57,488 nt of DNA. It comes from a virus. Its lineage: Duplodnaviria; Heunggongvirae; Uroviricota; Caudoviricetes. This document shows positions 27,953 to 47,345 of the stretch, one piece after another. Location of the stretch: IMG/VR virus record IMGVR_UViG_3300044640_001538; one strand, 5' to 3'. The notes beneath the pieces were generated by a model. The model was given only the letters and a program-made list of their open reading frames with translations. It made no database searches and had not been told where the DNA came from. Made by a program: the position numbers and the translations under genes. The first letter of the stretch is position 1. Each line of letters begins with the position of its first letter.

Positions 27953-30900
27953 ATGGATAATAACGCAGATAACCTTTTAGGCAAAATAAGAACACAAGCT
28001 CAAAGTTTCAATGTTCCGTCATCTCCATATAATGCCCCATCCCTTGATTATTTAAGACCAGCCCCTATAAATGTAAACAAAGATGCTGGAAAATTAAAAT
28101 TTAACGAATTTACAAACATATCTCAAGATACAGTATTTAAAGAGTTAAGTGATGGTTCAAAAGTTTCAATGTATAAAAATTTTATACCAGGAACAGATAA
28201 CAACGAAAGACTTGCTCAACAACAAACAGGTTGGGAACAAGTTAAAAACGGCTTAATAAAAGCAAAACTAAATATGGACTCTGTTATTTTAGGTAACACT
28301 GTAGGTTTTGTTTACGGATTAGCTGATTGGGCAAGAACAGGTAATTTTAATTCTGTTTATGACAACTCTTTTTCAAATACTTTAGCGGACTGGAATACTA
28401 CATTAAACTACCAATTACCAAATTATGTTTCTCAACAAGAGAAAGATTTAAGTATAGTTGGTAAAATGGGTACAGCTAACTTTTGGGCAAATGATATAGC
28501 AAACGGACTTTCTTTTACTATGGGTACGATTGTTTCAGAGGCTATTTGGGCTTCAGCTACTGGAGGAGCATCTTTAGCCGTCAGACTTGGTAGATTAGGC
28601 GCTGGAGTAGGAAGAGCTGGTAGATGGAGTAAGGTAGCACTAGGTTTAGAAAAAACAGCAGAAGGTGTAAGAGGTTATAAAGCATTACTAAACACAGCTT
28701 TAGATAATGCTGTAGTGGCAGGTAAACTATCAACAAAAACAGCAACAACTTTAGCAAAAACTGGAGAGGTATTAAACACAGCAAGGTTTATTGCAACATC
28801 ATCTGGTAACGAAGCAGGTATTGAAGCATTACATTATAAAAGAGAACAAAGAGAAAACTATTTAGATAATTTTGAAAAATTAAATGGTAGAGCACCAAGT
28901 CAAGAAGAAATATCAGATTTTGAAGAAAAATTAAATGATTCTGCAAATGGTGTCTTTGGAGCAAATATGGCTATACTTTCTGTAAGTAACTTAGCTACAT
29001 TTGGAAAAATGTTTAATATCAAAACTCCCCTAAAATCTATTTCAACTCAAGCAAATAAGAGTCTGTTCGGTGTCGGCGTAGAAAAAACAGCAGAAGGAGT
29101 TTATAAAGGATTACAAGCAACTAAATTTCAAAAAGGATTAGGTCTTGCATATACTTTAACTAAACCATTTGCAACAGAAGGTTTATTTGAAGAAGGTTTA
29201 CAAGGAGCCACAACAAAAACAGCAAATAACTGGATTGAAAGTTCTTACGACCCAAAATACATGGGTAAAACAATGTCTTTAGGGGTAGCATCTTCAAAAG
29301 CTTTATCAGAACAATATGGTTCTAAAGAAGGTTGGGAAGAAGTTGTTATTGGAGGTATTGTAGGATTAATTGGTGGCGGACCAACAGGACAATTCACAGA
29401 GTTAAAAAGAGCAAGAAAAGAACAAGAAGATTTTGTAGCAAAAGGTTTAAACACATTTAATTCTGTATTTGCACAAGATGTTTTAGCAGAAAGATTTGTT
29501 TTAAATTCAAGATTAATGTCCGCAATGGACAGAGAAACAGATGCCTTAAAGAAAAGAGATGCTGTTTCGGCACACTTTGCAAACAACGATGCTATTATAG
29601 CAAACATGCAGTTTGAAGAAAGTGATATTATTGGCGGAAGTGCAGACGATGTATATAGAAAGTTTGAAACAGCTTTAAATGCAATGTCTAAAGAAGAGTT
29701 TAAACAAGCGGGCGTAGAAAATATAGAAGAACATAAAGAAAACGTATTATCTGGTTTAAAGCAAGTAGTAACAGACTTTAAAAAAGCTTCTAACTATGCA
29801 AACGCTGTTTTAGGTAGCGATAAAATTGCAGGTAATACAGACTACAATATTAAAGTTGTAAAAGACGCTTTAGTACATTCTTGGGTTCAAGGGCAAAATG
29901 CTAGTAGAGTAATGTCTGACGAATTAGGAGAAATTGGAGATATTGTAGGAACAGAAAATTCAAAAGTTTTAAATACTATTCAAACTTTAGAGGCTTTAGG
30001 GAAAGATAAAACTAGAGAAGTTTCTAAATTAGGAAGACAATACAAAGATTTAGATAAAAAATCACAGGCTTTACAAGTAGAGATTGCAAAAGTACAAGCG
30101 GCGCCAAAAGAAACTCAAGGAGACAGAGTAAAAGGAAATTTAGCACAGCAACTACAAGCAAGATTAGTTGATATTGAAGCTAGAAAAGCAAGTATAAAAA
30201 CAGAATTAGAAGGTATTGCAAAAGAGTTAGAATCTAATAATAATCAAAAACAAGTTTATGCTGAACAAGCAGATATAAATACTCAAACAAGTTTATTAGG
30301 AGAGTTTGTTTCTGTTGACGATTTACTAAAAGTAGATGATAATTTATCTAAATTAAATAGTATCGCCGAGTCTGTAAAAAACAACAATAAAGTTTTATAT
30401 AACGACTTAACAGAATCTATTGAGAGATATCAAAACGCAAAACAAAAATTATATGCTTATAACGCATCTGTAAGTGCAATAGTTAGTGGTGAGTTTAAAT
30501 TAAAAACTACTAATAATTTCATAACAAGTATGTTAAATAAAAACAAAACTGTTGATGAAAGAACTGGTGAAATTTTAAATTATGCTTTAGAAAACTATTC
30601 TAAAATAAATGTAACAGAGCAAGCAAGAGTTAATAATGATGAACTTTTAAATCAAGCTATCGAAAGCATTAAAAAAGGCGAAGAAGTAGAGACAAGTATA
30701 ATTGCAGAAATTGCAACAAAAATTGATAAAGGTTTAAAATTAAGTGCAAAAGAAAACACTATTTACAACGCAAAACAAGAAGAAGTAGATGCGGCGGTAA
30801 AAAGAATTAACGACACACCAGTTGCAAAAACTGAACAAGAATTAAAAATTGAAGAATTAGAAAAAAGAAAAGCCGAATTAGAATCACAGAAACAAAACGT

Positions 30901-33900
30901 ATCTCAACCTACTGTTAGTAGTGAATCTGGTGTAGAAGCTAAAAAAGCTGATGTAAAAACAAAAACTACAAAAGTTATATCTTCTGAAATTGTAGAAAAA
31001 GGTAATAGAAAAGGTCAGACAAGAACAGTAACACAAACCAATACTATAGAAAATGTAGAAGGTACATTGGTAAGTATAACAGAGTATGAAGCAAAAGTTG
31101 GAGACACTGCTGTGACACTAGGTGGTATTACAATGACAGTTAAAGAGTTTAAAGAACAGTTTCCAATGGAGGAAGATTGGGGAGATGTCTTAGAAGGTCT
31201 TGATGATAACTCAAAAATAACAGTAAGAAAAGTAAAAAGGACTCCTACATCTTCAAGATTTGAAAGCGTGGTTAGTATTATGCATCCTGAACTTGGTAAG
31301 ATGGATATAGGATTTGAAAAAAATGATGCTAAATATGATGCAGAAATAGAAGCTTTAGAAGAACAATCAACAGAACTTGATTTAACAGAATCAATAGTTG
31401 AACAAATCAACAAAGAAATTGATTCAATAAACAAAAAAATAGAAAGTTTAAAAAACACAGGAGTAGAAAAAACACCTATTGAAGATGTTGAAGAAAGAAT
31501 TGTAAACGCAACAAAATACTTTGGAAGTGAATATATCGGAGCAGATAATCCAGAAGAAATGGCTAAAAAAAGACCATCTGAAAAGGATATTGAAAGATAT
31601 AGAGAACTAAAACAAAGTAAAGAGATACAAGACTATGAAACAAAAAATCAATTACCTTTAGATACGGCTTTAATAGAAGAATTTGAAAAGCTACAAGACA
31701 AACTTTCTAAATGGAGAGTTTATGATAGTTTAGTTGATGGTCAAGATTCTGTTGCTGATTTATTAGATTTAAGAGAACAATTACTTTGGCAAGAAGATAA
31801 AGAACAAACAGTTGATGAAATTTTAGAAGAAGATTATAAAGATATTTTAGACGAATTTATAAAAGTAAGTGGGACAGTAACAGATTATACTTTAGGAGAT
31901 AATTTCAATTTCCCGCCGACACTAAAAAGATTAGAAAACAATAGAATCAGTTTTTCTTTCCTTAAATTCCCAAGTATCATATCTAAATTTACTAATCCAG
32001 CAGTAACTATTGTATCAAAAGATGGTGACATTTTAGATAACTTTGAAAACTTAGAACAAGGTACAACTGTTATAGTAGAATCTGAAGGTAATACTTTTGA
32101 ATTTGTTTTGGTGGAAAAAGGTAGAATAGAAACAGACAGTAAAAATCTAATTTCTATGAATCTAACAACTTTCTCAATACCTTCTTGGTCGTATGAATTA
32201 ATCTATGAAAAAGTAAATGGAGAGTATAGAACTTTAGAGTCTGATTTTAGAGATGATAATATGGTGGGAGATACTTTCCAATTACAAGAAGGAGATTCTA
32301 TTGAATTGTTTGTAGATGCAAATAACGAATACAACAAACAATTACTAGAAGAAAACGACAAAGATAAATTAGTAAAAGATGTTGTTATTTACGTAGTTAA
32401 AAATGGAGAAAAGTATCAAATATTAAAAGCTTTAGATAAGAATAACAGTAATCCAGAGTTTCAAAAATTAAGAGAGGTCGCCGCAAAAACACTTAAAAAA
32501 GGAAAAAGTAAAGTAATTGCAACAACAAATGTAAGCTATATACATTTAGGATTACCAATAGTAAATGTTGGAGAAAATGGAAAACCAAGTCCAATAGATT
32601 TTACTACAAGTAGTTTAGACCAAGTAGTAACAACAGGATATGCATTTGATGGAGAAATTACTTTGGCGGATAAAACTTTAGAGAAAGATACAAGAAAAAC
32701 ATTTGTATCTAAACTTTCAAAAAACAAACAAGGTAAAAAACTACCAATTGTTGTGATTAAAAGAGGAAAGCATTTAATTGCATATCCAGTATCTTTAAAG
32801 AAATCGCCAAACCCTAAATTAAATGAATTTGATGCAATAGTAAATACAACAGGAGCAACAGACGCAGACAAAGTAAGAGCAGTAAACAATTTATTAATAG
32901 AGAACGGAATTGCACCAAACAAGTTTAATTTAACTTCTTGGGATGTAAATATTTTAGAGGCTATAAAAACTGAATTATCTAATTTACAGCAATTTATTGC
33001 GGCGGACGATTTAGCAAAAACAGAGTACGATAAAAACAGCTTAAAAGAAGATGCTCAAATAGCTTTAGATTTAGATGATATAAAAAGAGTTTTACCAAGT
33101 CAAAAAATAAATTATGATTTAACTACTTTAAAATATCAAGAAAAAGAATTTCAGCCTAAAGAAACAACAGAGGAAGAAGCAAAAGATTTAGTTAAAAAGG
33201 CGTATGATAAAACTACAACAAGTGACGATTATACTAAAATCCAAGATAGTATAAATGAAATGCTTGACAATGGAGCATCTAACCTGGAAATATTAAAATT
33301 CTTAAACAGTTCAAAAATAGGTAAAGAACTGTTAACAGAAGATGCCGAAGAAGTTATTGTAAAAGACGAATTAAAAGTCCCTACTGAAAGTGTAACAGAG
33401 TCTTTAGACGAAGAAACTTGGAATAATTTTGTAGATACAGGTAAAGTTCCAGCTTACGTTGTTTCTAAAATAGCAGAAAAGATAGTAAAAGGCGAAACTT
33501 TAGATGCTAGAGAGTTATCAATAAGACAAGAGTATTCTAAAGAAATAGAAGATATCTTGAACAGTTATAACACACAAACATCAGGCGTTAAAGCTAATAC
33601 TAGTCTTTCTGATGTAAAAAGTTTTGAAACATCTATGGGAAGCGTTTATACTGTACTACCTAACGGTAAAACCCAGAGATTTAAAACAGCTACTGGAAGG
33701 CAAAGCGAACCATCAGACTTAATTGTTTTTGTTAAGTTTGAAAACCCCCAACAAGAACAAAATTTTCTTTCCGCACAAAATAGAGAAAACGGAAGAAAGC
33801 TATATGTAGTTGACTCTAGTGGAAATATGTATGACACTGATGAGCAAATAAAAGGAAAAGATGTGAAACTTGCTATTGTCGAAAGCGGACGAGTTATTGA

Positions 33901-34258
33901 AATAGCAGAAACATCTTTAGAGCCTAAGATAGGTTACAATACGTTTGACCAAAGGAGGTTTGAAAAAAATGGGGAAAAATATAGAAGCACACATTTAGGA
34001 AATGATGTAATTAAAATAAATTATAACTCCCCAAAAGCTATAGCACCAAAAAGAAAAGTAAGTGCTTTGCAACTTGCTGAAGGTGTGGAATACTATAGAA
34101 CTAATGGTACTTTTATTTATAACGGAACATTGTGGGGCTATATAGATGCTAAATTTGGATACACAACTTTAATTAAAAGAGCAAGTGATTCAATGACAGA
34201 AGATTTCTTAAAAGAAGTAGAGAAAATAAAAACCGAAAAAGATTTAAATTGTAACTAA
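27953..34258 (+). CDS. Giant ejection protein (2101 aa) with N-terminal membrane-inserting segments
   Basis: Hydrophobic Gly/Ala segments (LSFTMGTIVSEAIWASATGGASLAV; VVIGGIVGLIGGG), EGLFEEGLQ motif, long coiled coils; single Cys at the penultimate residue. Confidence 0.65.
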   Translation: MDNNADNLLGKIRTQAQSFNVPSSPYNAPSLDYLRPAPINVNKDAGKLKFNEFTNISQDTVFKELSDGSKVSMYKNFIPGTDNNERLAQQQTGWEQVKNGLIKAKLNMDSVILGNTVGFVYGLADWARTGNFNSVYDNSFSNTLADWNTTLNYQLPNYVSQQEKDLSIVGKMGTANFWANDIANGLSFTMGTIVSEAIWASATGGASLAVRLGRLGAGVGRAGRWSKVALGLEKTAEGVRGYKALLNTALDNAVVAGKLSTKTATTLAKTGEVLNTARFIATSSGNEAGIEALHYKREQRENYLDNFEKLNGRAPSQEEISDFEEKLNDSANGVFGANMAILSVSNLATFGKMFNIKTPLKSISTQANKSLFGVGVEKTAEGVYKGLQATKFQKGLGLAYTLTKPFATEGLFEEGLQGATTKTANNWIESSYDPKYMGKTMSLGVASSKALSEQYGSKEGWEEVVIGGIVGLIGGGPTGQFTELKRARKEQEDFVAKGLNTFNSVFAQDVLAERFVLNSRLMSAMDRETDALKKRDAVSAHFANNDAIIANMQFEESDIIGGSADDVYRKFETALNAMSKEEFKQAGVENIEEHKENVLSGLKQVVTDFKKASNYANAVLGSDKIAGNTDYNIKVVKDALVHSWVQGQNASRVMSDELGEIGDIVGTENSKVLNTIQTLEALGKDKTREVSKLGRQYKDLDKKSQALQVEIAKVQAAPKETQGDRVKGNLAQQLQARLVDIEARKASIKTELEGIAKELESNNNQKQVYAEQADINTQTSLLGEFVSVDDLLKVDDNLSKLNSIAESVKNNNKVLYNDLTESIERYQNAKQKLYAYNASVSAIVSGEFKLKTTNNFITSMLNKNKTVDERTGEILNYALENYSKINVTEQARVNNDELLNQAIESIKKGEEVETSIIAEIATKIDKGLKLSAKENTIYNAKQEEVDAAVKRINDTPVAKTEQELKIEELEKRKAELESQKQNVSQPTVSSESGVEAKKADVKTKTTKVISSEIVEKGNRKGQTRTVTQTNTIENVEGTLVSITEYEAKVGDTAVTLGGITMTVKEFKEQFPMEEDWGDVLEGLDDNSKITVRKVKRTPTSSRFESVVSIMHPELGKMDIGFEKNDAKYDAEIEALEEQSTELDLTESIVEQINKEIDSINKKIESLKNTGVEKTPIEDVEERIVNATKYFGSEYIGADNPEEMAKKRPSEKDIERYRELKQSKEIQDYETKNQLPLDTALIEEFEKLQDKLSKWRVYDSLVDGQDSVADLLDLREQLLWQEDKEQTVDEILEEDYKDILDEFIKVSGTVTDYTLGDNFNFPPTLKRLENNRISFSFLKFPSIISKFTNPAVTIVSKDGDILDNFENLEQGTTVIVESEGNTFEFVLVEKGRIETDSKNLISMNLTTFSIPSWSYELIYEKVNGEYRTLESDFRDDNMVGDTFQLQEGDSIELFVDANNEYNKQLLEENDKDKLVKDVVIYVVKNGEKYQILKALDKNNSNPEFQKLREVAAKTLKKGKSKVIATTNVSYIHLGLPIVNVGENGKPSPIDFTTSSLDQVVTTGYAFDGEITLADKTLEKDTRKTFVSKLSKNKQGKKLPIVVIKRGKHLIAYPVSLKKSPNPKLNEFDAIVNTTGATDADKVRAVNNLLIENGIAPNKFNLTSWDVNILEAIKTELSNLQQFIAADDLAKTEYDKNSLKEDAQIALDLDDIKRVLPSQKINYDLTTLKYQEKEFQPKETTEEEAKDLVKKAYDKTTTSDDYTKIQDSINEMLDNGASNLEILKFLNSSKIGKELLTEDAEEVIVKDELKVPTESVTESLDEETWNNFVDTGKVPAYVVSKIAEKIVKGETLDARELSIRQEYSKEIEDILNSYNTQTSGVKANTSLSDVKSFETSMGSVYTVLPNGKTQRFKTATGRQSEPSDLIVFVKFENPQQEQNFLSAQNRENGRKLYVVDSSGNMYDTDEQIKGKDVKLAIVESGRVIEIAETSLEPKIGYNTFDQRRFEKNGEKYRSTHLGNDVIKINYNSPKAIAPKRKVSALQLAEGVEYYRTNGTFIYNGTLWGYIDAKFGYTTLIKRASDSMTEDFLKEVEKIKTEKDLNCN

Positions 34259-36471
34259 TGGCGAATTGTCAAATAAAAAATAACAAGTATTTTGCACCAA
34301 ATGGTGAAGAATCAATCTTATACAACACTTTAGAAAAAGAAGTGGGAAAACAAAAAGCTAAAGATTTATTCATAACAGCTTATACTCCCACTTTTATTTC
34401 GGAAGTTGTAGTACCGAGCATAAAAAATAATTTAAGAAGTCTATCTAACAAGGTAGAATCAATACCTACAAAACCTTTAATAGAGAACAGAAGAACAGTT
34501 GTAAAAAACAATGAAATCTATCTTTATGACGGCAAAACTAAAATAGGTAGAATTAGAATTGATAATTATGCTGATGGTATAAAAGTAAAAGATTCTTTAC
34601 TATCTGCAAATATCCCACAAAATCAAGGGTATGGAACAGAGCTTTATAAAGAAGTTTTAAAATATGCTTTAAAAAACAATGTAAATTTATACTCTGATAT
34701 AAGCCAAGCACCACTTGCAAAAGCTATCTGGAATAAGTTTGTAAGCGAAGGTATAGCACAAGAGAATAATGGTATTTACAAAGTAGATGTTTTAGGCAAT
34801 TCTTTTGATAAAAACGGCGAGATAAAAACTGAAAAAGTATATGAATACTTAAACAGAATTTACACATCTAAAGACCCCTTAAACATAGAGGAAATAGTTG
34901 ACATAAAATCTAGTATGCAAACAGAGTCATCTGAAGAATTATATTTTAAATTAAAGGAAGCATTTTTTAATAAGAAAGGATTATTTTCGCCGACAAAAAA
35001 ATCTTTAAAAGATTCAAAACTATACACAAATATAGAGATAGAAAGAATACTTACAAACGCAAAATTACAGGCAAAAATTAAAGATACAATTCAAAAGCTA
35101 AAAAATACAGAACCGTTTTTTAAAGGTGAAGATGTGGCATTTGAAAAAGAGTTTGTAAGAGAAAGTGCAGAACAAAACGCAGTGGGCAAGTTTAGAATAA
35201 ACAACCCATTAAAAGAAAAGAACCTTTACATAGAGCAAAATGCAGGTAAAAAAAATGTAGACGAGTATATTTTACCAAAAGAAGAATTAGACAAATACAG
35301 CAGAATAAAAGTTATAGATGAGCAAGGACAACCAATGCAAGAAGAACTTATCTACGAAAAGGCAGTAAAAGAAGTTGAGAAAGAGTCAACACCTTACAGA
35401 GGAATTTCAGCTATTGTAAATGCACCTTTAAATGTAGATGTGTTTAAACTTATGAAAAAAGTAGAAAATTGGCTTTTAAGTTACGGTTTAGATATTAAAG
35501 GATTGAAAAGAGAGGGTTATACAGCTTTAAAACAATATCTTGATAATCCAAGTGCCGAAACTAAAGAAAGTCTTTACAGAGCTTTAAATTTCGCCAAAAA
35601 AGATAAAGAAAAGGTATTACTGTTAGAAAACAAAAACAGAACCTATAAATATTTAGAAACTAATAAATCAGAAGAACAGTTATTTGAAGAATTATCTTTA
35701 ATAAAAACAAACACTCCAAATGTCTATCACGAAGTAGTTAAAGTAGATGTAGACCAAATGAGAGAAATAACTAAAGATATTTATTCAAAAGAGTTTGAGC
35801 TTTATAAAAAGTATTTTGGATATGAAAGTATGCAAGAAGTAGAAAGTAGCGTACAAACTAATTTTGAAGGGGATTTAAAGTATTTATTAGGCGATTTTAT
35901 TGCAGATTTTTCGGCGGAAATATTAAAAAACAAAGACAGTAAATTTTACGGAGCTTTTAAAATAACAGACAATGGAATTGAACTAATATCAGAAGATGAA
36001 ATAACTTTAAGAGAAGTGAAAGACTTTGTAAATTCAGATATTAAATTTGCAAAAGAAATAGCAGAATACAGTTTACTTTCTAAAAATATGCCGAATTTAA
36101 AAGAAGACGGCGGGCAAAAAGATAAAGAGCAAGAAAGAATAAAAGCAGTGAATGACATAAACTCTGTAAAAGAAATAGATGGAGATTTCGCACAAATAAG
36201 TAGAGAAATAATCGCGTCAAAAGATGAAACAGTAAGTTTTATAAAACACAAAGGAAATGTATTTGAACTACAAGAAAAATATGGAGATTATAACTTTTAT
36301 GTAATATTAGAAAAAAATAACAATTTAAAATACAATAATTTTAACCCAACATTACCACAATACATAGATGTAACAAACTTCAACATAAAGCAGTCAGATT
36401 TAGAGAATTACGCCAAAATAAATAAGAAGTTTAAAGAAACAGATTTGGGAGATAATTTTACTTGTCTGTAA
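34258..36471 (+). CDS. Ejection/polyvalent protein with GNAT acetyltransferase domain (737 aa)
   Basis: QNQGYGTELY (acetyl-CoA motif A) followed by LYSDISQAPLAKAIWNKF; APNGEESILY N-terminal motif. Confidence 0.65.
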   Translation: MANCQIKNNKYFAPNGEESILYNTLEKEVGKQKAKDLFITAYTPTFISEVVVPSIKNNLRSLSNKVESIPTKPLIENRRTVVKNNEIYLYDGKTKIGRIRIDNYADGIKVKDSLLSANIPQNQGYGTELYKEVLKYALKNNVNLYSDISQAPLAKAIWNKFVSEGIAQENNGIYKVDVLGNSFDKNGEIKTEKVYEYLNRIYTSKDPLNIEEIVDIKSSMQTESSEELYFKLKEAFFNKKGLFSPTKKSLKDSKLYTNIEIERILTNAKLQAKIKDTIQKLKNTEPFFKGEDVAFEKEFVRESAEQNAVGKFRINNPLKEKNLYIEQNAGKKNVDEYILPKEELDKYSRIKVIDEQGQPMQEELIYEKAVKEVEKESTPYRGISAIVNAPLNVDVFKLMKKVENWLLSYGLDIKGLKREGYTALKQYLDNPSAETKESLYRALNFAKKDKEKVLLLENKNRTYKYLETNKSEEQLFEELSLIKTNTPNVYHEVVKVDVDQMREITKDIYSKEFELYKKYFGYESMQEVESSVQTNFEGDLKYLLGDFIADFSAEILKNKDSKFYGAFKITDNGIELISEDEITLREVKDFVNSDIKFAKEIAEYSLLSKNMPNLKEDGGQKDKEQERIKAVNDINSVKEIDGDFAQISREIIASKDETVSFIKHKGNVFELQEKYGDYNFYVILEKNNNLKYNNFNPTLPQYIDVTNFNIKQSDLENYAKINKKFKETDLGDNFTCL

Positions 36472-36487
36472 CAAACATTATAAATAA

Positions 36488-36519
36488 TTTGGATAATTAA
36501 AATAAATGTCGTATATTTG
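36488..36519 (+). promoter_or_regulatory. Bacteroidota sigma70 promoter
   Basis: TTTG-GATAATTAAAATAAATGTCG-TATATTTG. Confidence 0.9.
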
Positions 36520-36536
36520 CGCTCAATCATATAATA

Positions 36537-36746
36537 ATGGTTGGGCGTTTATATTATAAAAATATGCAACATATAACACAGTTATCCTTAACAGATGCAG
36601 AAATAATTGCTTTAAAAGACGCAATAAAAACATATAAAGAGTTTGTAAAAGATAAAATAGAAGACAGAATTGAAGCTCCATATTGGGCAAGATTGGAAGC
36701 AATAAAAAATTTAGAAAGAAAATTAAAACAAGAACATGAGCTGTAA
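36537..36746 (+). CDS. Small helical protein of unknown function (start may be the ATG at 36564)
   Basis: Follows a promoter; overlaps the start of the giant gene by 11 nt. Confidence 0.55.
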   Translation: MVGRLYYKNMQHITQLSLTDAEIIALKDAIKTYKEFVKDKIEDRIEAPYWARLEAIKNLERKLKQEHEL

Positions 36747-39700
36747 ACTGCAAAAGAACGAAAAAAACGGTAAAATAAATAAAGTGTTAAATCAAGCTGG
36801 AAAACCTTCAAAACTTTTCCAACAGATATTTAATACACCAACATTAACCTTAAACCAAGCAATAGATGCTTATAAGAATATCTATTCTGAAAAACTAAAA
36901 GACACTGTTAAGTTTTCTATTGGGCAAAAAGGAATATCAATCCAAGAAGCCGTAAAAAGAAACAACGGAAATCCTTTAAATTTAGCACCAAATGGAAAAC
37001 CCTCTATTTTATACCAATCATATAAAGATTTAGGATATTCTGATAGCGAAGCAGAAAGATTAACAGCACAAACTTTTAGTGATGAGTTTCAAAATTGGTT
37101 TGGTGATTGGATAAATGCAGCTAATTCATTTTTTGATGGCGACATATTGGATAGAAAAGAAGCTATAAAAACTTTCAATTCTAGTTATGTTGTTGATAGC
37201 AATATGCAACCTGCTGTAATGTACCATGGCACACCATCATCTGATATAACAGAATTTGATAGAAATAAAAAAGTAAGAAAAAGCAGTGGTTTAAGGGAAG
37301 TTGCAAACTATTTTACCTCAAATATAAAATTAGCAGAATTATATAAAAAAGCAGAAGTAGATGAGGAATATAGAAATAGTGTAAAAAAAGAAATAACTAA
37401 ACTAAAAGAGTTACAATATAACGTTCGTAACAATAGAGACTATGATAGTATAGAAAATAAAATAAAACTGTCACAAGATAAATTATCTGGAACTATATAC
37501 TCTACATTTTTAAATGTTAAAGAACCGTTTTTAGAAAATGGAAGAGGGTTAGACGAAAGAGCATGGAACAATTTTAGACTACCAATAGGATACAAAACGG
37601 CAAGTAATAAAGCAGATATCTTAGACGCACTTAGTGGTAAAAATGATGCAGCAAGGTTAGATACTAACTATGATGGAGCTATTGTAAGTAATATTGCAGA
37701 TATGGCATCTGGAAAATCCTTATTCACAACAGAAGAATCATCACTTGATGAAGTTAGAGAAGATGTAAAACCTTATATAGGTACAGTTGTTGCGGTATGG
37801 GAGCCAAACCAAATAAAATCAGCAACAGAAAACATAGGAACATTCGGTAGTGAAAGTAATGATATTAGATACCAAATACTTGGAGAAAAGGGTGCACAAA
37901 ATTTAGACCAAATAGAAGAAGCAACTTTTAGAATGGATAACTTACTTGTCGCCAAAGAAATGGAACAAGTAGGCAAAACACCTTTACAAATCCGTTTATC
38001 AACAGGTTGGGAGAAAAACTCAATGGATTTAAAGTGGAGATATGAAATATTAGATGGAAACATAAAACCACTTACAAACTTAAAACCAAACTTAAATATA
38101 AAAGGAATAGGGTATGTATTTGTAACAAATGTTGAAGAAATATTCAACAACGAAGAATTATTTAAAGCATACCCTAACTTAAAACAAACAGAAGTAGTCT
38201 TAATGATGTCCGATAACGAAGCATTCAGGGATTATAAAATGTTTTTTTCAAATGATAAAATATATATAAATTTAAATTACTATGGAAATACAACTGCCTT
38301 GGGCATCGACACCCGAAATGACTTCATTCATGAGCTCCAACATTTTTCTCAACAAATTGAGGGATTTGAAAAAGGAGGTAGCCCTGATGGGTACAGAACC
38401 AGAGCTATTGAGTATCTTAATAAAGTACGAGAGTCAGGCTATACCGAAGCTTCAGAAACAGTGGGCTTTAGAGAAATTGCAAAAGAGTTTGACAACTTTA
38501 TAAAAAACTCGGAATACATTCTTTTCAAGGATATGAATGTAATTACTTCAAATGATGAAAGTATTGATGCTGTATCTTTTTTATATGGTATAGATAGGTA
38601 TGAAAGATTGGCAGGAGAAGTGGAGGCGACGAATGTGGAAAATAGAGTAAACATGTCCGCCGAAGAAAGATTAAACACACTTCTTTCCGAGACACAATCT
38701 ATTCCATTTGAGGACCAATTTATTTCTCAATTTAAAAATGACACACAGGCAATCTTAAATTCGCCGCAAAAAATTGAAAAAGAAGTTTTAGACAGACTAA
38801 AACAAAACGGATTAGCTAACAATGTTTACCAATTAACTACAGCTGAACTTAATAATAAGTTAGAAGAACTTGGAGTAGGAAACACAAAACAAACAGTTAA
38901 CGGTTTTGTACATACAGCAACAGGAGATATTTATTTAAACTCTGATTTAGCTGACAATTCGACACTTATCCACGAATACTCGCACATCTTTTTAGACACA
39001 ATAGAAAAAACTCGTCCAGAACTATATAAAAGAGGAATGGATTTAGTAGAAGAAGAATTAAATAAAGAAGATTCTGATATTAAATCAATAATTGATTTTG
39101 TTACTACAAACCAGCCGTCCTTAAAAGGCGACGCACTAAAAGCTGAAATTTTAGCAGAATTAACAGGTCGCAGAGGTAGTGAACTTTTAGAAAGTTTAAA
39201 AGCTAAAAAAAGTGGTATTTTTGATTGGCTGATTGATATTTGGAATTCCGTAAAAGACATGTTGAATCTTACTTCAGTAACTCCAGAGCAGTTATCTCAA
39301 ATGACTTTGGGCGAATATGCTGATGCTATTACTGTGGATTTAACCATGGGTAAAAAACTATTTGAAGATTCTGTAAGAGGACAAGAAACTAAATTCCAAA
39401 TTATCGGCGAAAAAGGAGCTTCAAGAATAGAAGAATATAACAACCTTTTAAACCAAGCAAAAGAATTAGAAAAACAAGGTGCAACACCAGCAGAAATAGA
39501 AAAACAAACACTATGGTATAAATTTAAAGGACAATGGAGAACCTTACCTAAAGAAATTTTACAAAGCTTTAAAGTTGTATCCAATACAAGAGATAAAATA
39601 TTAACATTAAAAGAGGTAATAGGTGATGACAATGTACTATTTAAATTTTACCCTGAAATTGACAAAACTAAAGTTGTGTTTGTTAGGGAAGGTGTTCAAG

Positions 39701-42700
39701 ATTTACAAACACCAGAAGATTTCGAGGACTATAGTGGAGCTTACGATGAAGGAAGTGATACTATCTTCATCAATACGATGTATGAAGGCAATGAAGTCGG
39801 AGAAAAAGAAGAAAAATACACTCTCGGGCATGAGATTCAACACAGAATTCAAGAGGTAGAAGGATTTCCTAAAGGAGGAGATTATACAAGTATTTTAGAT
39901 GAAGCGTTAACTATACTAAATATATCTGAAGATTTAGGACCAGAAGATACATATAACAGGATATTAAAAGCAGATAAAACAAATCTTACTGACAATGAAA
40001 AATTAATAGTAGACGCAAGTTTAAATACAGTTTTAGCCATAGTTAATGATGACGAGAATCTTCTTAAAAATCAGTATAAACATTTACTAGGAGAAATAGA
40101 TTCAAAAGTAGTAGAAGCAGCATTAAAAGTAAAAGATAATTTTAACATAATTCCTAAAAGCTATAAGGAAATGCTTGGTTATTACGCCAATATAGGAGGT
40201 GTAAATTTAAGTGAAGTATTTTTATTAAGAAACGGAAATAAAAGATTTTCAAAAACAACAGTAGAAGAACCACAAGCAAAATTCAATGGTTATAATACAT
40301 ATTCTGAAGCTCTTAAAAACACAACATCAAATGATACTATCAAAATAACAATAGAAGATGAAGTTGTAGCAGAAGTTAGCGCAGATACAAGTAATAATAC
40401 TATTAATGGAAGCTTAAATGATTTAGTTAAACAAACAATTTTAAAAGGAGAGAGATTTCTTAATCCTAATGGAGATATTGTACATGTAACTGAAGGTAAT
40501 TCGGCGGCAAAAAAGTTTATAAACGCAACAATAGCAGAAAATTTATTAGGAAGAAACAACACAATTATTGATGATAATAGTAACATTATTTTAAAGGAGA
40601 AACAAGAATCTGTTTTAAAATTAAGCTTTGACGAAATTAATAAAAAATATAAAGATGTTGAAACTTCAAGCGCCGTAATTGCAGGTAAATTATATGCTGA
40701 AAATATGACACCATTTGGAGATAGTAGAGTAATTGACAGCGCTCAAGAAATAACTCCAGAGAATGTCCTACAAGAAAATTTATTAAACTTACTTTCTCAA
40801 TTAGGGATTAAAACAGTTAGTTTAGATAGATATAAAGCATCGTATGAAAATAGAAATGGAGTACCAGTAACAGCAGTTGCTTTAGCTGATATTGCTAATA
40901 AAGTTATTGCTTTTTCTTCTGGGCAAGTTACTCAAGATACTTTAACAGAGGAGGTTTCTCACTTTATTATCGAAGCTTTAGACCAAGAGGCTATTCAACC
41001 ACTGTTAGACAACATAAACAAAACAGAGGAGTGGGCAGAACATGCACAACACTATTTTGAATTATATGGTGACGAGGCTATTGTTAGAAAAGAAGTTTTA
41101 GGTAAAGTATTGTCAAATGCTATTCAAAAAGGATTTAGACAAGAGCAAACTACTATGGTAGGGAATTCTATTATTTCTAAACTTAGAGCTTTCTTTGAGC
41201 AGTTTTTAGATTCTATTTATGCTATGATTAAACCACAACATACGGTGGATTTACAGAGATTTACTAATGAGGTTTACAGAAATCTTATGGCTAATCAATT
41301 AATAGATAAATTGAATAAAGAACAGCTTGAAGGTAACAAACTTGTAATGTATCAATCATCTGCAACTATTAATAATGAAACAGATGTTTTGGCGGAAAAA
41401 GTTAAAAAAGCTTTAGAATATTTAGAAAACCAAGACAGAAAATTAGACTCTATTTCAAAAACAGAAATAGAAGATATAAAACAATTACAAGATTTAGATG
41501 CAAGTTTACAAATAGCAAAAATATCTAAAAGACAAGTAGATTATTTAAGAAAAAGAAACAAAGCAAAATTACTTTCATCTGAAGAATATGCAGTTTATAC
41601 TTCTACAACAACTTTCTTATTTAATGCTTTAACAGCATTAAGAGGTGCTGTAAGTAACAAACAAGCAGAACAAGCGCTTTCTGAAACTATTAATGATATC
41701 ACTTTATTAAGACAAGAGGTGAGCATCAACCAAGAAGAAATCTTTAACGATTTAATTGACAGAATTGTAGTTTCTCCAGAGCAAAAAGCAGCTGTTTTAG
41801 AGAGTTTTAGAACGTTAGAAAAAGATACAAACTGGTTTTTCCAACAAGCTGGTGGTATTATTCATGCAAGTAACCCTGCTTTAAATATTTTATCGGCGGT
41901 TATTAGCGACATGAATGTAAAAGCTAAATTAAACTTCAACGATAGAAAAGTAAGTTTCTTAAATGTTGCAGATAAATTAGGTTTTGATGTAAATCAATTA
42001 CCAGATGTTTTAAAGAAATTTAAAAGAGGTAATTATATATTTAATGCTTACGATTTTGATAAAGCGGAGGACGATTTAAATGAAGAAAAAGCAAGACTTT
42101 TAAATGAGATGTTCACCGAGGAAGAGAAAAAAGAAATCGGCGCAATAACAAAAGAAACGGTAAAAGAAAAAGAGAATGATATAATAGCTAACTTTAAAGA
42201 TTTAGAGCGTGTAAAAAATTATAAATATCAAGCAAATCAATACAGACTTAGAAATCAAAACATTCCAAACTTAAAACAGTCTGAAATAGATGCTAAAGAT
42301 AAGTTTATAGAAGAGAACAATATTTCTTCAACAGCTTTATTATTAGATGCAGAATTCTCTAAAAAGAGAAGCAACATAACAAGACAAGCTAAAAAAGAAG
42401 GTGGTTTTTCTCAAGCTTTAAAAGCTTTGATGGAAGAGTTAAACAGAGATAGACTGTTTGCTAAAAATCCATTTAATAACGACGGAGATTTAAGACCAGG
42501 ACTGTCTTTTGATGAAGATGGAAAGTTACAAATTGATGTAAATTCGGCAACAAAAGAATCTATATTAGTTTATGAATTAACAAAATTAGATGAGTATAAA
42601 GCAAAAAGTTTTAAAGAAAATACAGGTCAAGCTCCAACACCAACTTACTTCTATAGTATTTTGGAATCAATGGATAGAGATGAAAGAAGAGAGTTTTTAG

Positions 42701-45438
42701 AATTAAATGCCAATATAAGTTTCAATAATAATTTCTGGGACCAATTTGATAGTAATACTAACCAAGTGGAAGATGAAGAGCTTGCAAAACAAATTGCTTT
42801 AGTTTCTAAAAAAAGAAGCAACATCTTAAAAGCTTACAAAGTATTTAATAATCCTTCTGAGGTGAATTACACCGCAATGAATGATATTACTAAAGACGAG
42901 GTTAGAAGATTATCAGAACAATTAGAAACATTATACAAAGAAGCTAGTAGTAAATCTGGAAAAGAAACAGAAGATAAGTTTTTTGAATCTATTGTTAATG
43001 ATGCGTATAAAAAAGAAATAAGAGATTATTACTCTTTAAGGGTGGACGAAACTCCAACAGTAGACCAAGTAGTAGAATTTGCAAGAAATCACACTACTTT
43101 AGATAATAAATATAAATTAGATTGGGCAAGGGGGGTTTTCAAAGATTTTGAAAATGGTAGAATAAAACAATTACCTAAATCTTTACAAGGTTATAACAAC
43201 GCCGCAGAATTTGCAGAGTCAAAACTTTTACCGTACTTCAAAAAAATACAACCAAAAGGATTTGATTATGAAGCAGAGTTAAACAACTTTTTAGACAACC
43301 CAACTCAAGGATTAAATTCTCAATATTTATCTATAACTCCAAGTTATATATTTTTGGAGCAAGGAGAAAATGACAGAGTTAATCCAGAGTACATGAAAAG
43401 AATAGAAAATGGAGAACCTTTATTAAATGATAAATATGCTAACGAAGAGTATTTAAAGTATTTTGGAATGTCTTCAATTGATGCGCAACCAACTAAAAAC
43501 TTAAAAGAGTACGAACTTTTAAAAGAATTAGTTGTTTTTCAAGAAGAAACTATTTTGTCAGCGGGAATGGAAAATAAACACAATAAGTATTTATTACCAC
43601 AAAAAGAGGCAAGAGGTTTAAGAAAAATAATGGGTGCTGATGTAAAAGGTTATTTAAGAGATTTAACTAGAAATAGAGAAGACGATGCAATTTACGGGCA
43701 AAAAACAGATGAAACAAAATCTGAAAGACAAGGTACATATAACGAACTAATAGTTCCAAGACACGGTTTTTATAATATAGAAAATACAACAGACGAATTA
43801 CTTTACAGCTATATGTGGATGGCGCAACAATCTGAATTAACAAGACAGAGAATTGACGCACTTGCAGAAGTTGAAAGTGTTAGAGGAGCTTTATTAAACA
43901 AACAATATGGAGATAAGCACGGAGAATCTACAAGAACATATAAAATGTTTGATGATTTTGTAAGAGCAAATATCTATGGGCAGTCAGAAACTTTCCACAT
44001 GGATACAACTCTATTTGGTTTGAAAAAAGACAAAGTAAATGTGGCTACATCTATTAAATCTTTTCAAAGTTTTATCAGACTTTCTAACTTAGGGTTTAAC
44101 ATTCTTACACCACTTACGTCTTTACTTCAAGGTAGTGTCAATTATTTCGGGGAAAAAGTTGTAGGGGGAAGAATAGATAAAGATGCAGAAAGATTATCAA
44201 GAGGATTAATGTCTTCAATGCTTACAGAATCAGCTAATGAAACATTCAGTTTAGTTGGAAAAGGAAGACTGTCTATGTTAAATGAATTTATGGGGCAAGG
44301 GAATGCACAAGAAAGGTTTGAAAATTCAAACTATAGCGGTGTAGTCAGAGGTTTACAAAAATCAGCTTACTTAACACACTCTATAGCAGATGCGCCTTTA
44401 GCAACAAAAGTGTTACTAACAGTTTTACATGATTACAGAGTTGTTGGAGATAAAATTATGAACTTTAAGCAGTTTGCAAATACTTCAGACAAATCGGTAA
44501 AAGAACTAAGAAAAGAGTGGGTTACATACGAAAAAGATGTAATATTTAACTATTTAGAAGTTGTAAAAGACGGCAAATACGGAAAATACCAATTAAAAGA
44601 AATACCTGGAGTAGATAGAGCCTATGCAGAAAAAGCTTTACAACAAATTAGAAATGCTGTAACTTTAGCAAAACAAGAGGTTGATTCGGCTATTCCTAGT
44701 GTGGATAGGTCAAACATACAACGCCATGCGTTATTGAGCTTCGCCGCCTTACACAAAAATTGGTTGGCAACCTCTATGACAAGAAGGTTTAAAAGTAGAC
44801 ATCAAAACATGTATTCTGGATTAGCAGAAGAAGGAAGTTACACTGGAGTAGGTAATTTCTTAAAAGATGTTATTTCAGACATGAGAGCCAATGGAGGATT
44901 AAAAAACCTAAGACAGTCTTTAGTTAAAACTTGGGCAGAAGCAAAAAATGACAGAGTGAGAATGGAGTCTTTAAAAAGAGCTATGTTTGACGTTGCTATC
45001 GTAAACGCTTTAGGATTAATTGCAATACTTCTTAAAAATGCCGCAGATGATGACGATGAAAAAGATAACGCAATGTTACAATTTAGTTCTTACATGGGAT
45101 ATCGTTTAGCTTCAGAGGTAACTTCACAGTCGACTGGTTTTCCTAATGAGGCTTATAAATTCTTAGAGTCACCAACAACAGGTTTATCACAGATTCAAAA
45201 TATGTTGGATATTACAGATTTAGCATCCTCAGATTTAGTAAAAACAGGTAAATATCGTGGATATAGTACTAGAGCGGCATGGATGTTCAAAACTTTGCCT
45301 GGTATTAAAGAAGTGTTTAAACTGACAAACATGGATAAAACAAGACAGACTTATGAACTGTTTAATAGAAGTATTCAAAATCCATTCTTTGTAGCAAGTT
45401 ATTCTATACTAGAAAAGGATAAAGAAGAGGAAGAATAG
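36736..45438 (+). CDS. Large polyvalent ejection protein (2900 aa): ART-like domain, 2x LPD23+zincin, further zincin domains, helical C-terminus
   Basis: MYHGT...NYFT...FLNVKEP...YDG...WEPNQIKSATENIGTF (ART-PolyVal pattern); TGWE...KWRYEI (LPD23); HELQH, HEYSH, HEIQH and degenerate EEVSH; C-terminal hydrophobic helix. Confidence 0.8.
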   Translation: MSCKLQKNEKNGKINKVLNQAGKPSKLFQQIFNTPTLTLNQAIDAYKNIYSEKLKDTVKFSIGQKGISIQEAVKRNNGNPLNLAPNGKPSILYQSYKDLGYSDSEAERLTAQTFSDEFQNWFGDWINAANSFFDGDILDRKEAIKTFNSSYVVDSNMQPAVMYHGTPSSDITEFDRNKKVRKSSGLREVANYFTSNIKLAELYKKAEVDEEYRNSVKKEITKLKELQYNVRNNRDYDSIENKIKLSQDKLSGTIYSTFLNVKEPFLENGRGLDERAWNNFRLPIGYKTASNKADILDALSGKNDAARLDTNYDGAIVSNIADMASGKSLFTTEESSLDEVREDVKPYIGTVVAVWEPNQIKSATENIGTFGSESNDIRYQILGEKGAQNLDQIEEATFRMDNLLVAKEMEQVGKTPLQIRLSTGWEKNSMDLKWRYEILDGNIKPLTNLKPNLNIKGIGYVFVTNVEEIFNNEELFKAYPNLKQTEVVLMMSDNEAFRDYKMFFSNDKIYINLNYYGNTTALGIDTRNDFIHELQHFSQQIEGFEKGGSPDGYRTRAIEYLNKVRESGYTEASETVGFREIAKEFDNFIKNSEYILFKDMNVITSNDESIDAVSFLYGIDRYERLAGEVEATNVENRVNMSAEERLNTLLSETQSIPFEDQFISQFKNDTQAILNSPQKIEKEVLDRLKQNGLANNVYQLTTAELNNKLEELGVGNTKQTVNGFVHTATGDIYLNSDLADNSTLIHEYSHIFLDTIEKTRPELYKRGMDLVEEELNKEDSDIKSIIDFVTTNQPSLKGDALKAEILAELTGRRGSELLESLKAKKSGIFDWLIDIWNSVKDMLNLTSVTPEQLSQMTLGEYADAITVDLTMGKKLFEDSVRGQETKFQIIGEKGASRIEEYNNLLNQAKELEKQGATPAEIEKQTLWYKFKGQWRTLPKEILQSFKVVSNTRDKILTLKEVIGDDNVLFKFYPEIDKTKVVFVREGVQDLQTPEDFEDYSGAYDEGSDTIFINTMYEGNEVGEKEEKYTLGHEIQHRIQEVEGFPKGGDYTSILDEALTILNISEDLGPEDTYNRILKADKTNLTDNEKLIVDASLNTVLAIVNDDENLLKNQYKHLLGEIDSKVVEAALKVKDNFNIIPKSYKEMLGYYANIGGVNLSEVFLLRNGNKRFSKTTVEEPQAKFNGYNTYSEALKNTTSNDTIKITIEDEVVAEVSADTSNNTINGSLNDLVKQTILKGERFLNPNGDIVHVTEGNSAAKKFINATIAENLLGRNNTIIDDNSNIILKEKQESVLKLSFDEINKKYKDVETSSAVIAGKLYAENMTPFGDSRVIDSAQEITPENVLQENLLNLLSQLGIKTVSLDRYKASYENRNGVPVTAVALADIANKVIAFSSGQVTQDTLTEEVSHFIIEALDQEAIQPLLDNINKTEEWAEHAQHYFELYGDEAIVRKEVLGKVLSNAIQKGFRQEQTTMVGNSIISKLRAFFEQFLDSIYAMIKPQHTVDLQRFTNEVYRNLMANQLIDKLNKEQLEGNKLVMYQSSATINNETDVLAEKVKKALEYLENQDRKLDSISKTEIEDIKQLQDLDASLQIAKISKRQVDYLRKRNKAKLLSSEEYAVYTSTTTFLFNALTALRGAVSNKQAEQALSETINDITLLRQEVSINQEEIFNDLIDRIVVSPEQKAAVLESFRTLEKDTNWFFQQAGGIIHASNPALNILSAVISDMNVKAKLNFNDRKVSFLNVADKLGFDVNQLPDVLKKFKRGNYIFNAYDFDKAEDDLNEEKARLLNEMFTEEEKKEIGAITKETVKEKENDIIANFKDLERVKNYKYQANQYRLRNQNIPNLKQSEIDAKDKFIEENNISSTALLLDAEFSKKRSNITRQAKKEGGFSQALKALMEELNRDRLFAKNPFNNDGDLRPGLSFDEDGKLQIDVNSATKESILVYELTKLDEYKAKSFKENTGQAPTPTYFYSILESMDRDERREFLELNANISFNNNFWDQFDSNTNQVEDEELAKQIALVSKKRSNILKAYKVFNNPSEVNYTAMNDITKDEVRRLSEQLETLYKEASSKSGKETEDKFFESIVNDAYKKEIRDYYSLRVDETPTVDQVVEFARNHTTLDNKYKLDWARGVFKDFENGRIKQLPKSLQGYNNAAEFAESKLLPYFKKIQPKGFDYEAELNNFLDNPTQGLNSQYLSITPSYIFLEQGENDRVNPEYMKRIENGEPLLNDKYANEEYLKYFGMSSIDAQPTKNLKEYELLKELVVFQEETILSAGMENKHNKYLLPQKEARGLRKIMGADVKGYLRDLTRNREDDAIYGQKTDETKSERQGTYNELIVPRHGFYNIENTTDELLYSYMWMAQQSELTRQRIDALAEVESVRGALLNKQYGDKHGESTRTYKMFDDFVRANIYGQSETFHMDTTLFGLKKDKVNVATSIKSFQSFIRLSNLGFNILTPLTSLLQGSVNYFGEKVVGGRIDKDAERLSRGLMSSMLTESANETFSLVGKGRLSMLNEFMGQGNAQERFENSNYSGVVRGLQKSAYLTHSIADAPLATKVLLTVLHDYRVVGDKIMNFKQFANTSDKSVKELRKEWVTYEKDVIFNYLEVVKDGKYGKYQLKEIPGVDRAYAEKALQQIRNAVTLAKQEVDSAIPSVDRSNIQRHALLSFAALHKNWLATSMTRRFKSRHQNMYSGLAEEGSYTGVGNFLKDVISDMRANGGLKNLRQSLVKTWAEAKNDRVRMESLKRAMFDVAIVNALGLIAILLKNAADDDDEKDNAMLQFSSYMGYRLASEVTSQSTGFPNEAYKFLESPTTGLSQIQNMLDITDLASSDLVKTGKYRGYSTRAAWMFKTLPGIKEVFKLTNMDKTRQTYELFNRSIQNPFFVASYSILEKDKEEEE

Positions 45439-45565: not shown

Positions 45566-46342
45566 ATGACTCTTAATTTAATATTTATGAGATTCAAAAA
45601 ATCAACAAACGAATTATTTACAGATAACGGCGTATTTATAAAAAAGATAAGTTGTCCATTAGAAGATGCAAGTCTTTATTTAGAAGTTAATGAAGTAACT
45701 AAATGTACACTTTGTAATAACTGCCACAAAGAAGTAGTAAATATAAACAGACTAACAGATAAAGAGGTTTTAAATATCTTTGAAAAAGACCCAGAAACAT
45801 GCGTATCATTTAGTATATCTAAAGAAGTAAATGAAGGCAGAGATGATTTGCTTATTGTTGGGTATAAAAACTATGGAAAAAACAACACTGAAGATTTAAT
45901 AAATATAAGTACTGCAAGAAATGTAGATGAAATAAATAAAGCAGTAGAGCAAGGGTATAATATTATATTAAAAATGACAGACAAAATAAATGATTGGATG
46001 CTTATAACTGGTTATAGCTATTCTCTAATTAAAACAGAATCAGGTAGATACATAGAATATACAGACCCAAGAACAAAATATTGGCTTGGTGAAAAGTTCG
46101 AGACGATAATATCACATAAAAAATACAACGACACAAGTAGTGAAATTCATTATGCCGCTTACATAGTGCCAAAAGATTTAAAGAAAGGAGATAGAGTATT
46201 TTTAGAAGATATCATAGAAGATTTTCCTTACCATATTCACCATGGCTCGTCAAAATTAAAATCATGGACAGCTACTTTTAACGGAGAAGATTTCGATATA
46301 GATTACACTATATTTAAAGACTCAATAATGTGCATAGGATAA
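45566..46342 (+). CDS. Hypothetical two-domain protein with Cys cluster (moron-like)
   Basis: FIKKISCP...CTLCNNC...TCVSF possible Zn site; second domain AAYIVPKDLKKGDRVFLEDIIED; has its own promoter. Confidence 0.6.
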   Translation: MTLNLIFMRFKKSTNELFTDNGVFIKKISCPLEDASLYLEVNEVTKCTLCNNCHKEVVNINRLTDKEVLNIFEKDPETCVSFSISKEVNEGRDDLLIVGYKNYGKNNTEDLINISTARNVDEINKAVEQGYNIILKMTDKINDWMLITGYSYSLIKTESGRYIEYTDPRTKYWLGEKFETIISHKKYNDTSSEIHYAAYIVPKDLKKGDRVFLEDIIEDFPYHIHHGSSKLKSWTATFNGEDFDIDYTIFKDSIMCIG

Positions 46343-47262: not shown

Positions 47263-47345
47263 CTAAAGCAAATGGGATTCTTAAAAACGCTTGAACTACT
47301 GTCCTACGTTAACTTTAAAGGAAGATGCCCCTTCCATGTATCTTT
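47226..47345 (-). ncRNA. TnpB reRNA/omegaRNA scaffold plus guide (predicted guide starts CTAAACAAAACCTTAC...)
   Basis: Scaffold overlaps the tnpB 3' end (GGGGCATCTTCC, AACGT..GCGTT stems) and ends in the CCCAT..TTTAG..ATGGG hairpin and GTCAT. The flanking DNA serves as guide by established TnpB biology. The 5' end is approximate. Confidence 0.7.

Follow-up and report, generated by a model that had tools for sequence, protein, structure and literature searches.

A 57,488-nucleotide stretch of DNA from a marine phage of the class Caudoviricetes (IMG/VR record IMGVR_UViG_3300044640_001538), here called the window, carries six consecutive cargo open reading frames (ORFs) on the + strand (20227-45438), which together encode 8,273 amino acids (aa) and contain four cysteines (Cys) in all. 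These four Cys lie at the facing ends of the last three proteins, hereafter A, B, and C. The same rule, a Cys at the very C-terminus of one protein and a Cys at the very N-terminus of the next, is followed in distant relatives, where it has a direction, is lost when the genes are fused, and is accompanied by a small module specific to the junctions. We propose that head-to-tail links, most likely disulfide bonds, unite A, B, and C into one covalent thread, a reading to which we assign a probability of about 0.55.

Cysteine Content of the Cargo Proteins

Each cargo ORF was taken from the first start codon in its open frame. The sole Cys of A is residue 2100 (codon 34250, tail ...KDLNCN*); B has two, residue 4 (MANC, codon 34267) and the penultimate residue, 736 (...NFTCL*, codon 36463); the sole Cys of C is residue 3 (codon 36742, MSC); and the 489-, 1167-, and 879-aa proteins encoded upstream of A have none. 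If four Cys were placed at random in A, B, and C, the probability of finding one in each facing 5-residue end would be ~1e-11. A recount reproduced every one of these positions as claimed in the initial annotation of the window, and the outer ends of the trio, the N-terminus of A and the C-terminus of C, are free of Cys as it had stated, both here and in the respective families. The tail-side proteins, which it had described as Cys-rich, contain 1.6-7.5% Cys.

Cys accounts for 0.048% of residues in the six cargo ORFs and for 1.73% (156 in 9,022 aa) in the remaining 25 ORFs of the window, a background rate at which ~143 Cys would be expected in the cargo instead of the 4 observed (Poisson P ~1e-55). 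Position-specific base composition predicts ~82 TGY codons for the cargo genes, and their two off-frames are rich in TGY (471 of 16,546 triplets), so that the depletion reflects selection at the protein level and is not compositional. The Cys frequency is thus far under that of the phage's own proteome, with family-wide values of 0.002-0.015% for internal Cys, as in Cys-suppressed phage ejection proteins. Most likely, all three proteins are effectors that are packed in the virion, injected, and kept nearly free of Cys by strong selection.

Conservation and Direction of the Rule

The closest cultured relatives are the Cellulophaga phages phi17:2 and phi4:1 (genus Lightbulbvirus), with 28% identity over one third of B and a cargo block syntenic with that of the window. 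In phi17:2, gp042, gp041, and gp040 have no Cys; gp039 (1957 aa) ends in its single Cys, gp038 (517 aa) carries two, at positions 4 and 516, and gp036 (1914 aa) one, at position 3. Relatives of B were found with a two-sequence alignment including phi17:2 as the query; B alone or A alone retrieved no related loci, and megablast of the cargo block against phage records gave no match. The rule is followed by 12 further IMG/VR contigs, five of which were extended to whole chains, with two or three members per chain. It also holds in crAss001, where gp47 has Cys only at residue 2339 of 2341, gp50 at 5, 1334, and 2404 of 2412, and gp49 only at 5. Over 21 junctions in 14 genomes, crAss001 included, a C-terminal Cys on the upstream protein is always accompanied by an N-terminal Cys on the next, and the number of C-terminal Cys equals the number of N-terminal Cys in each genome checked. 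The exact offset of the Cys from the C-terminal end shows no correlation with that at the following N-terminal end that is apparent by eye across the 21 junctions.

Family-wide counts, made on 120 listed of 141 A-type, 150 listed of 224 B-type (cluster representatives), and 79 C-type proteins, give the rule its direction. In the A family, a C-terminal Cys is present in 117 of 120 proteins and an N-terminal one in none, with 15 internal Cys in 211,553 residues. B-type proteins carry Cys at both ends, in 134 of 150 at the N-terminus (position 3-5, rarely 6-8) and in 140 of 150 within the last one to four residues, and have 3 internal Cys in 134,300 residues when two proteins with Cys-bearing inserts are left out; the members missing one terminal Cys are mostly short fragments. 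The C family has an N-terminal Cys in 78 of 79, a C-terminal Cys in 0 of 79, and 4 internal Cys in 174,063 residues. The first link thus has a C-terminal Cys only, the middle link both, and the last link an N-terminal Cys only, as a directional chain predicts, and this asymmetry is not predicted by an end-label of any other purpose. The retention of terminal Cys in orthologues, proposed as a check in the initial annotation, was accordingly borne out at below 30% identity in phi17:2, the IMG/VR contigs, and the censuses, and the co-occurrence of C- and N-terminal Cys at every split holds over all junctions compared. Its further idea of a chain threaded out in gene order fared differently: the Cys rule stood, while gene order proved not to be essential, as the first member in crAss001, gp47, is encoded on the opposite strand from gp50 and gp49.

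The direction of the rule also bears on the possibility that the terminal Cys are not paired with each other, with each end instead attached to, or modified for, something other than its counterpart, whether a Cys in the portal or inner capsid, an acyl group, or a cofactor. The Cys-rich tail-side virion proteins could supply such partners. Such roles, however, give no account of the missing N-terminal Cys in the first protein (0/120, and 0/73 in the fused forms described below), the missing C-terminal Cys in the last (0/79), the equal numbers of the two kinds of Cys in each genome, or their joint loss at fusions, and we regard them as distinctly unlikely.

A nucleotide-level or annotation artefact, in which TGT codons are kept by overlapping start and stop signals such as ATGAGCTGTAA, was considered as well. 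The overlap ATGAGYTGTAA, in which the stop of a small ORF lies over the MSC start of C, is indeed conserved between the window and phi17:2, and in phi17:2 the Cys codons of A and B overlap in TGTGC. The rule is nevertheless kept where genes overlap by 17 nucleotides (nt) or by 1 nt, where 70-300 nt or other genes lie between them, and where they are on opposite strands, and it is kept as well in ~350 diverged proteins. With crAss001 gp47 on the other strand and with the family censuses, this explanation was rejected and has next to no chance of being right.

Two side observations concern the relatives. The summed chain length is 6,100-6,300 aa in five contigs and in crAss001, for chains of two as for chains of three pieces and with or without RNA polymerase; it is 5,738 aa in the window and 4,388 aa in phi17:2. 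A capsid-volume limit is possible. In addition, gp026 of phi17:2 (L001 33588-34016), ~7 kb downstream of the Cys-free block, is annotated in GenBank as a cysteine dioxygenase, and a link to virion thiol chemistry would be speculation.

Anatomy of a Junction

The downstream half of a junction is an N-terminal module of ~55 aa (N-module) that begins M-x-Cys or M-x-x-x-Cys and follows the pattern M-[SA]-C-[NRQK]-[IWL] ... NG..S.L[YF]..L ... A.[DE]L ... T..F, in which C, S, L, and A are near-invariant. A profile of this module finds the N-termini of 129 B-type and 57 C-type proteins and has no match in A-type proteins or fused giants; the N-terminus of crAss001 gp49 is matched as well, with a modest score of 18 bits. 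The N-modules are the only junction parts that demonstrably form one family. In the AlphaFold2 model of the C N-module, a beta-hairpin immediately after the Cys is followed by three helices, with a predicted local distance difference test score (pLDDT) of ~75 over residues 1-50; a Foldseek search of the model against PDB returned nothing under E 3.

The profile has three internal matches, all to a Cys-less variant. One is in C itself, at residues 74-120 (window 36955-37095, KRNNGNPLNLAPNGKPS...), after the true N-module, and the variant also occurs inside two other members of the family, proteins P0117 and P0300. This Cys-less copy may derive from a junction that once lay here, or it may be a domain type of its own.

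The other half, on the upstream protein, is a short C-terminal tail with its Cys among the last one to three residues. In B-type proteins it carries the motif [ED]-x-F-[NDE]-C-(x), whereas the A-type tail is charged and less conserved and has C, or C plus one residue, at its end; no homology was detected between the A tail and the C-terminal domain of B. Residues 711-737 are the sole long low-confidence stretch in the AlphaFold2 model of B (mean pLDDT 88.4, below 50 at 711-726 and 732-737), so that the tail is probably flexible. Complex structure prediction of the C-terminal domain of B with the N-module of C gave a score of 0.03, which speaks neither for nor against binding.

This anatomy is relevant to the chemistry of the proposed link. 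In principle, the same head-to-tail junction could be tied by two thiols sharing a metal ion (Zn or Fe) rather than by a disulfide. A metal tie would form already in the reducing cytoplasm at assembly and would hold in anoxic habitats, the rule is equally present in phages of marine aerobic hosts and of gut anaerobes, and the acidic residues frequent at -4 and -1 of the B-type tail could add ligands. Each half-site, however, offers only one invariant Cys; no conserved His, Asp, Glu, or second Cys is found in the N-module, A-type tails have no conserved ligand beside the Cys, and a two-thiolate site would be unusual for a structural metal. We therefore consider a metal tie unlikely, and favor a disulfide because Cys is the sole residue that is invariant on both sides.

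Fused and Split Forms

Genes of this kind also exist in fused form, as 73 proteins of 3,700-5,000 aa with an A-type N-terminus; in every one of them, the crAss polymerase motif DFD[IV]D is found around residues 3,000-3,600. Residues 50-870 of A match these 73 giants, with E-values down to 2e-39; 72 of the 73 also match crAss001 gp47 and gp50, in that order. A direct phmmer comparison of A with crAss001 gp47 found nothing, so that the relation between the two is transitive, via the giants. A C-terminal Cys is present in 73/73 giants and an N-terminal one in 0/73. Their fusion zones contain no Cys in 52 of the 66 cases where the zone is definable and a close Cys pair in none; in crAss001, with gp47 and gp50 as separate genes, the junction Cys pair is present. 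When split A and B were compared by phmmer with the 4,400-4,600-aa proteins of contigs G001-G003, just the first ~400 aa aligned, and that these proteins are fusions is accordingly judged from similar giants, which were compared with crAss001 gp47 and gp50.

About half of the giants (P0353-P0421) have one internal Cys ~70-85 residues before DFDID, in the conserved context C-E-[IV]-[ML]. It is the sole recurrent internal Cys in these families.

A shift of the break point is seen between the window and contig G005. The segment at residues 374-877 of C, which comprises LPD23 and two of the three HExxH motifs, belongs to the N-terminal part of C in the window and to the C-terminal part of B in G005, where its counterpart lies in B 696-2298, and the order of blocks along the concatenated chain (A, B-core, insert, C-core) is identical in the two. 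At the window's cut site, the G005 protein is continuous (...EQEFEK-SIEDAGIKNKVKFSI...), without Cys, ...NFxC tail, or N-module; at the G005 cut site (...ACN* / MANNC...), the window protein is continuous and Cys-free. The Cys pair and the N-module track whichever site is cut. In contig G004, the insert precedes the B-core, and block order is therefore not absolute. The module and the tail motif occur nowhere but at cuts of the chain. In our reading, they make up a dedicated adaptor and do not belong to the functional domains.

A Proposed Head-to-Tail Thread

In the reading that we favor, the tail of the upstream protein would dock on the N-module of the next, and the two thiols would link, most likely through a disulfide that closes once the particle is outside the cell. 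The product would be a single unbranched A-B-C thread of ~5,700 aa, which would fix both the packaging stoichiometry and the order of exit, and the reducing cytoplasm of the host would cut it back to three proteins. The docking, the covalent nature and chemistry of the link, the exit order, and the release are steps that we infer. With the links at the very ends, the thread would still fit a narrow portal or tail channel as a single strand, and positions 1-5 residues from the ends are those expected if the linked product must act as an unbranched strand in such a channel; since the chain has no other Cys, branches and knots would not arise.

Alternatively, B could close on itself through Cys4 and Cys736 and A could pair with C, giving a ring and a heterodimer. 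B does have both types of end, and contact in cis is compatible with the tests made. Chains of two members (A'+C), on the other hand, allow only intermolecular pairing, a closed ring would cross the channel as a double strand, and Cys placed 1-5 residues from the ends are clearly advantageous only for a linear concatenate. Self-closure of B is thus highly improbable.

Several points weigh against the head-to-tail thread. The Cys-Cys contact at the junctions is a deduction from sequence patterns. Virion assembly takes place in the reducing cytoplasm; a disulfide could close only within the capsid or after lysis. The rule is kept, too, by phages whose hosts are strictly anaerobic gut Bacteroides, a setting in which oxidation can be relied on less. 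The poor conservation of A-type tails beyond the Cys puts the specificity of docking in doubt. B, which is predicted to be a well-folded globular protein, would need to be unfolded for threading.

A broader generalization, to which we give slightly less than an even chance, is that tail Cys and ~55-aa N-module Cys may together form a portable "split cassette" that rejoins separately translated giant proteins into one linear thread, reversibly, through a redox- or metal-sensitive link. With such a cassette, an injected polyprotein of ~6,000 aa could be split or fused in evolution at any border between domains while co-packaging and ordered ejection are kept. The system would be at work throughout Crassvirales, to which the most abundant human gut phages belong, as well as in their marine relatives without RNA polymerase.

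Domain Content and Neighboring Genes

The features of the cargo block are collected in Table 1. B residues 77-180 (window 34486-34797) show a GNAT acetyltransferase-like fold in the AlphaFold2 model, with no Pfam match; in Foldseek, this region matches many GNATs, including AcrVA5 and Legionella VipF, with a probability of ~1 and E-values of only 1e-3 to 3e-2. The predicted fold suggests that B is itself an injected effector.

Between B and C lies a gap of 265 nt with the sequence TATATTTG (36512-36519), which we take to resemble the Bacteroidota -7 promoter element TAnnTTTG. The 60-aa ORF in this gap has no family match, and the same slot is occupied by the SLOG/YspA-like gp037 in phi17:2 and by an unrelated 130-aa ORF in G005; the SLOG gene of the window sits downstream of C (46330-46692). 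A TnpB-type gene with OrfB_IS605 and Cas12f1-like TNB domains (47296-48471, - strand) lies shortly downstream of the cargo block, and an HNH/NUMOD4 homing-endonuclease gene lies at 49733-50311. No thiol oxidase or Dsb-like gene was found among the window ORFs scanned.

Table 1. Cargo block of the window: genes, junction parts, and domains.
Feature	Position	Strand	Remarks
Cys-free virion protein, 489 aa, N-terminal SLT lytic transglycosylase domain	20227..21696	+	PF01464, 65.8 bits (cutoff 21.3); PHROG internal virion protein with endolysin domain; free-standing, no terminal Cys
Cys-free virion protein, 1167 aa, no terminal Cys	21699..25202	+	orthologue of phi17:2 gp041
Cys-free virion protein, 879 aa, no terminal Cys	25313..27952	+	orthologue of phi17:2 gp040
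Putative chain member A, first link, 2101 aa	27953..34258	+	residues 50-870 common to crAss-type A+RNA-polymerase giants; Cys2100 only
TGT codon of A Cys2100, penultimate residue	34250..34252	+	
Putative chain member B, middle link, 737 aa	34258..36471	+	N-module, GNAT-like domain (~residues 77-180), more folded domains, disordered tail
N-module of B, residues 1-65	34258..34452	+	Cys4 at 34267-34269
C-terminal tail of B, residues 711-737, ends ...DNFTCL	36388..36468	+	predicted disordered; Cys736 at 36463-36465; motif [ED]xF[NDE]C
Small 60-aa ORF in B-C gap, not a chain part	36564..36746	+	stop overlaps C start (ATGAGCTGTAA); slot variable among relatives
Putative chain member C, last link, 2900 aa	36736..45438	+	N-module, polyvalent effector insert, conserved core; Cys3 only
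N-module of C, residues 1-60	36736..36915	+	Cys3 at 36742-36744; match to B-family N-terminal profile, i-E 1.2e-9
ART-PolyVal ADP-ribosyltransferase domain of C, residues 154-370	37195..37845	+	PF18760, 62.9 bits (cutoff 31.2)
LPD23 polyvalent-protein domain of C, residues 396-442	37921..38061	+	PF18838, 49.8 bits (cutoff 27)
Three HExxH zincin-like motifs of C, residues 532, 746, 1032	38329..39843	+	weak DUF6782 match, under cutoff
Conserved core of C, residues 1185-2900	40288..45435	+	orthologous to phi17:2 gp036 residues 72-1913; last ~730 aa related to crAss001 gp49 C-terminal part

Novelty and Meaning

In the literature searched, we found no published description of the terminal-Cys rule, which also lies outside any published definition of the crAss-type cargo block. 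The initial annotation had known of no precedent, and this remains correct for the terminal-pair rule but not for the depletion of Cys in ejected proteins, which has been published for N4-like phages (PMC11445570). Only the former is new here; to it, the present analysis adds family-wide directional counts, a junction-specific N-module, and a shift of the break point, and the window extends it to a lineage outside the named Crassvirales that is without RNA polymerase. As the chain exists without a virion RNA polymerase, the tie would belong to the delivery system and not to the polymerase.

An open question for crassviruses and N4-like phages is how, and in which order, podoviruses move megadalton loads of protein through a channel of only a few nm (PMC10172136; PMC13434306). 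If true, an end-to-end tie would explain how giants from three or more separate genes can be packed in a fixed ratio, exit as a single strand, and come apart on arrival in the host, and why these genes fuse and split so freely in evolution. The pair of tail and module could, in addition, serve as a small, reversible protein-joining tag.

Comparison with Known Systems

The cargo block shares with crAss001 gp47-gp50-gp49, the counterpart of which in phi14:2 is gp67-gp66-gp65 (10.1101/2020.03.07.982082), the N-terminal region of A (by way of the fused giants), the core of C, the N-module at the N-terminus of gp49, the terminal-Cys rule, and giant, probably virion-packed proteins; as in the cargo of Crassvirales, fused polyprotein forms exist. 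By tblastn, residues 2163-2900 of C match crAss001 gp49 (E 5e-4), csAssE-Sib (E 1e-38), and many other crAss records. In crAss001, gp47, gp49, and gp50 have been found in virions by mass spectrometry and are assigned to the capsid cargo zone (PMC10172136), and gp66 of phi14:2 is translocated into the host (10.1101/2020.03.07.982082); along with the annotation of the phi17:2/phi4:1 orthologues as virion structural proteins, these observations are indirect evidence for packaging and injection of the cargo of the window. The crAss papers describe three virion proteins, their occasional fusion to a polyprotein that is "likely cleaved," and partial unfolding at ejection, with no mention of cysteines (PMC10172136; 10.1101/2020.03.07.982082). 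What they propose is proteolytic cleavage of fused forms, whereas we propose joining of split ones.

Unlike in Crassvirales, no virion RNA polymerase was detected in the chain of this lineage; GNAT-like, ADP-ribosyltransferase, and zincin-like modules take its place. A, B, and C are devoid of DxDxD, D[FYWLIVM]DxD is absent from all long open frames of the window, and the 150 listed relatives of B show no credible DFDxD polymerase motif. A crAss polymerase segment finds matches in crAss001 and in contig G001 but none in the complete phi17:2 genome. When PDB was searched by sequence and by profile, with A, with C, and with an alignment of the C-core, no match was obtained, 6VR4 included, and thus no sequence link to 6VR4 or to the N4 polymerase.

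In Schitoviridae, the proteins of the ejection operon (N4 gp50-52, DEV gp71-73) are Cys-suppressed, which has been explained by their unfolded passage through the envelope; the few Cys remaining in N4-like phages were judged non-conserved or annotation errors, and no terminal rule was described (PMC11445570). The cargo of the window resembles these proteins in being giant, probably injected, and nearly Cys-free, and no sequence relation to them was detected. Because the N4 polymerase is one polypeptide, it has no junctions, unlike A-B-C. The 489-aa SLT protein, for its part, resembles internal virion proteins of T7-like phages.

The effector content resembles that of the polyvalent proteins of phages and conjugative elements (PMC5512222), with ART-PolyVal, LPD23, and zincin-like motifs in C, a GNAT-like region in B, and other PolyVal domains in relatives. 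C qualifies as a polyvalent protein in having at least two conflict-type effector or LPD domains in one polypeptide. The paper that describes polyvalent proteins treats single polypeptides, with no mention of cysteines or disulfides (PMC5512222); here, by contrast, several polypeptides are apparently joined via dedicated end modules.

The arrangement of tail and module also recalls the docking domains of modular enzymes. In modular polyketide and non-ribosomal peptide synthases, a short C-terminal tail recognizes a small N-terminal module of the next subunit and thereby sets the order of giant proteins. Those contacts are non-covalent, involve no Cys, work in catalysis instead of translocation, and have no sequence relation to the junctions described here; the analogy is one of working principle only: a short tail on one giant protein and a small module on the next.

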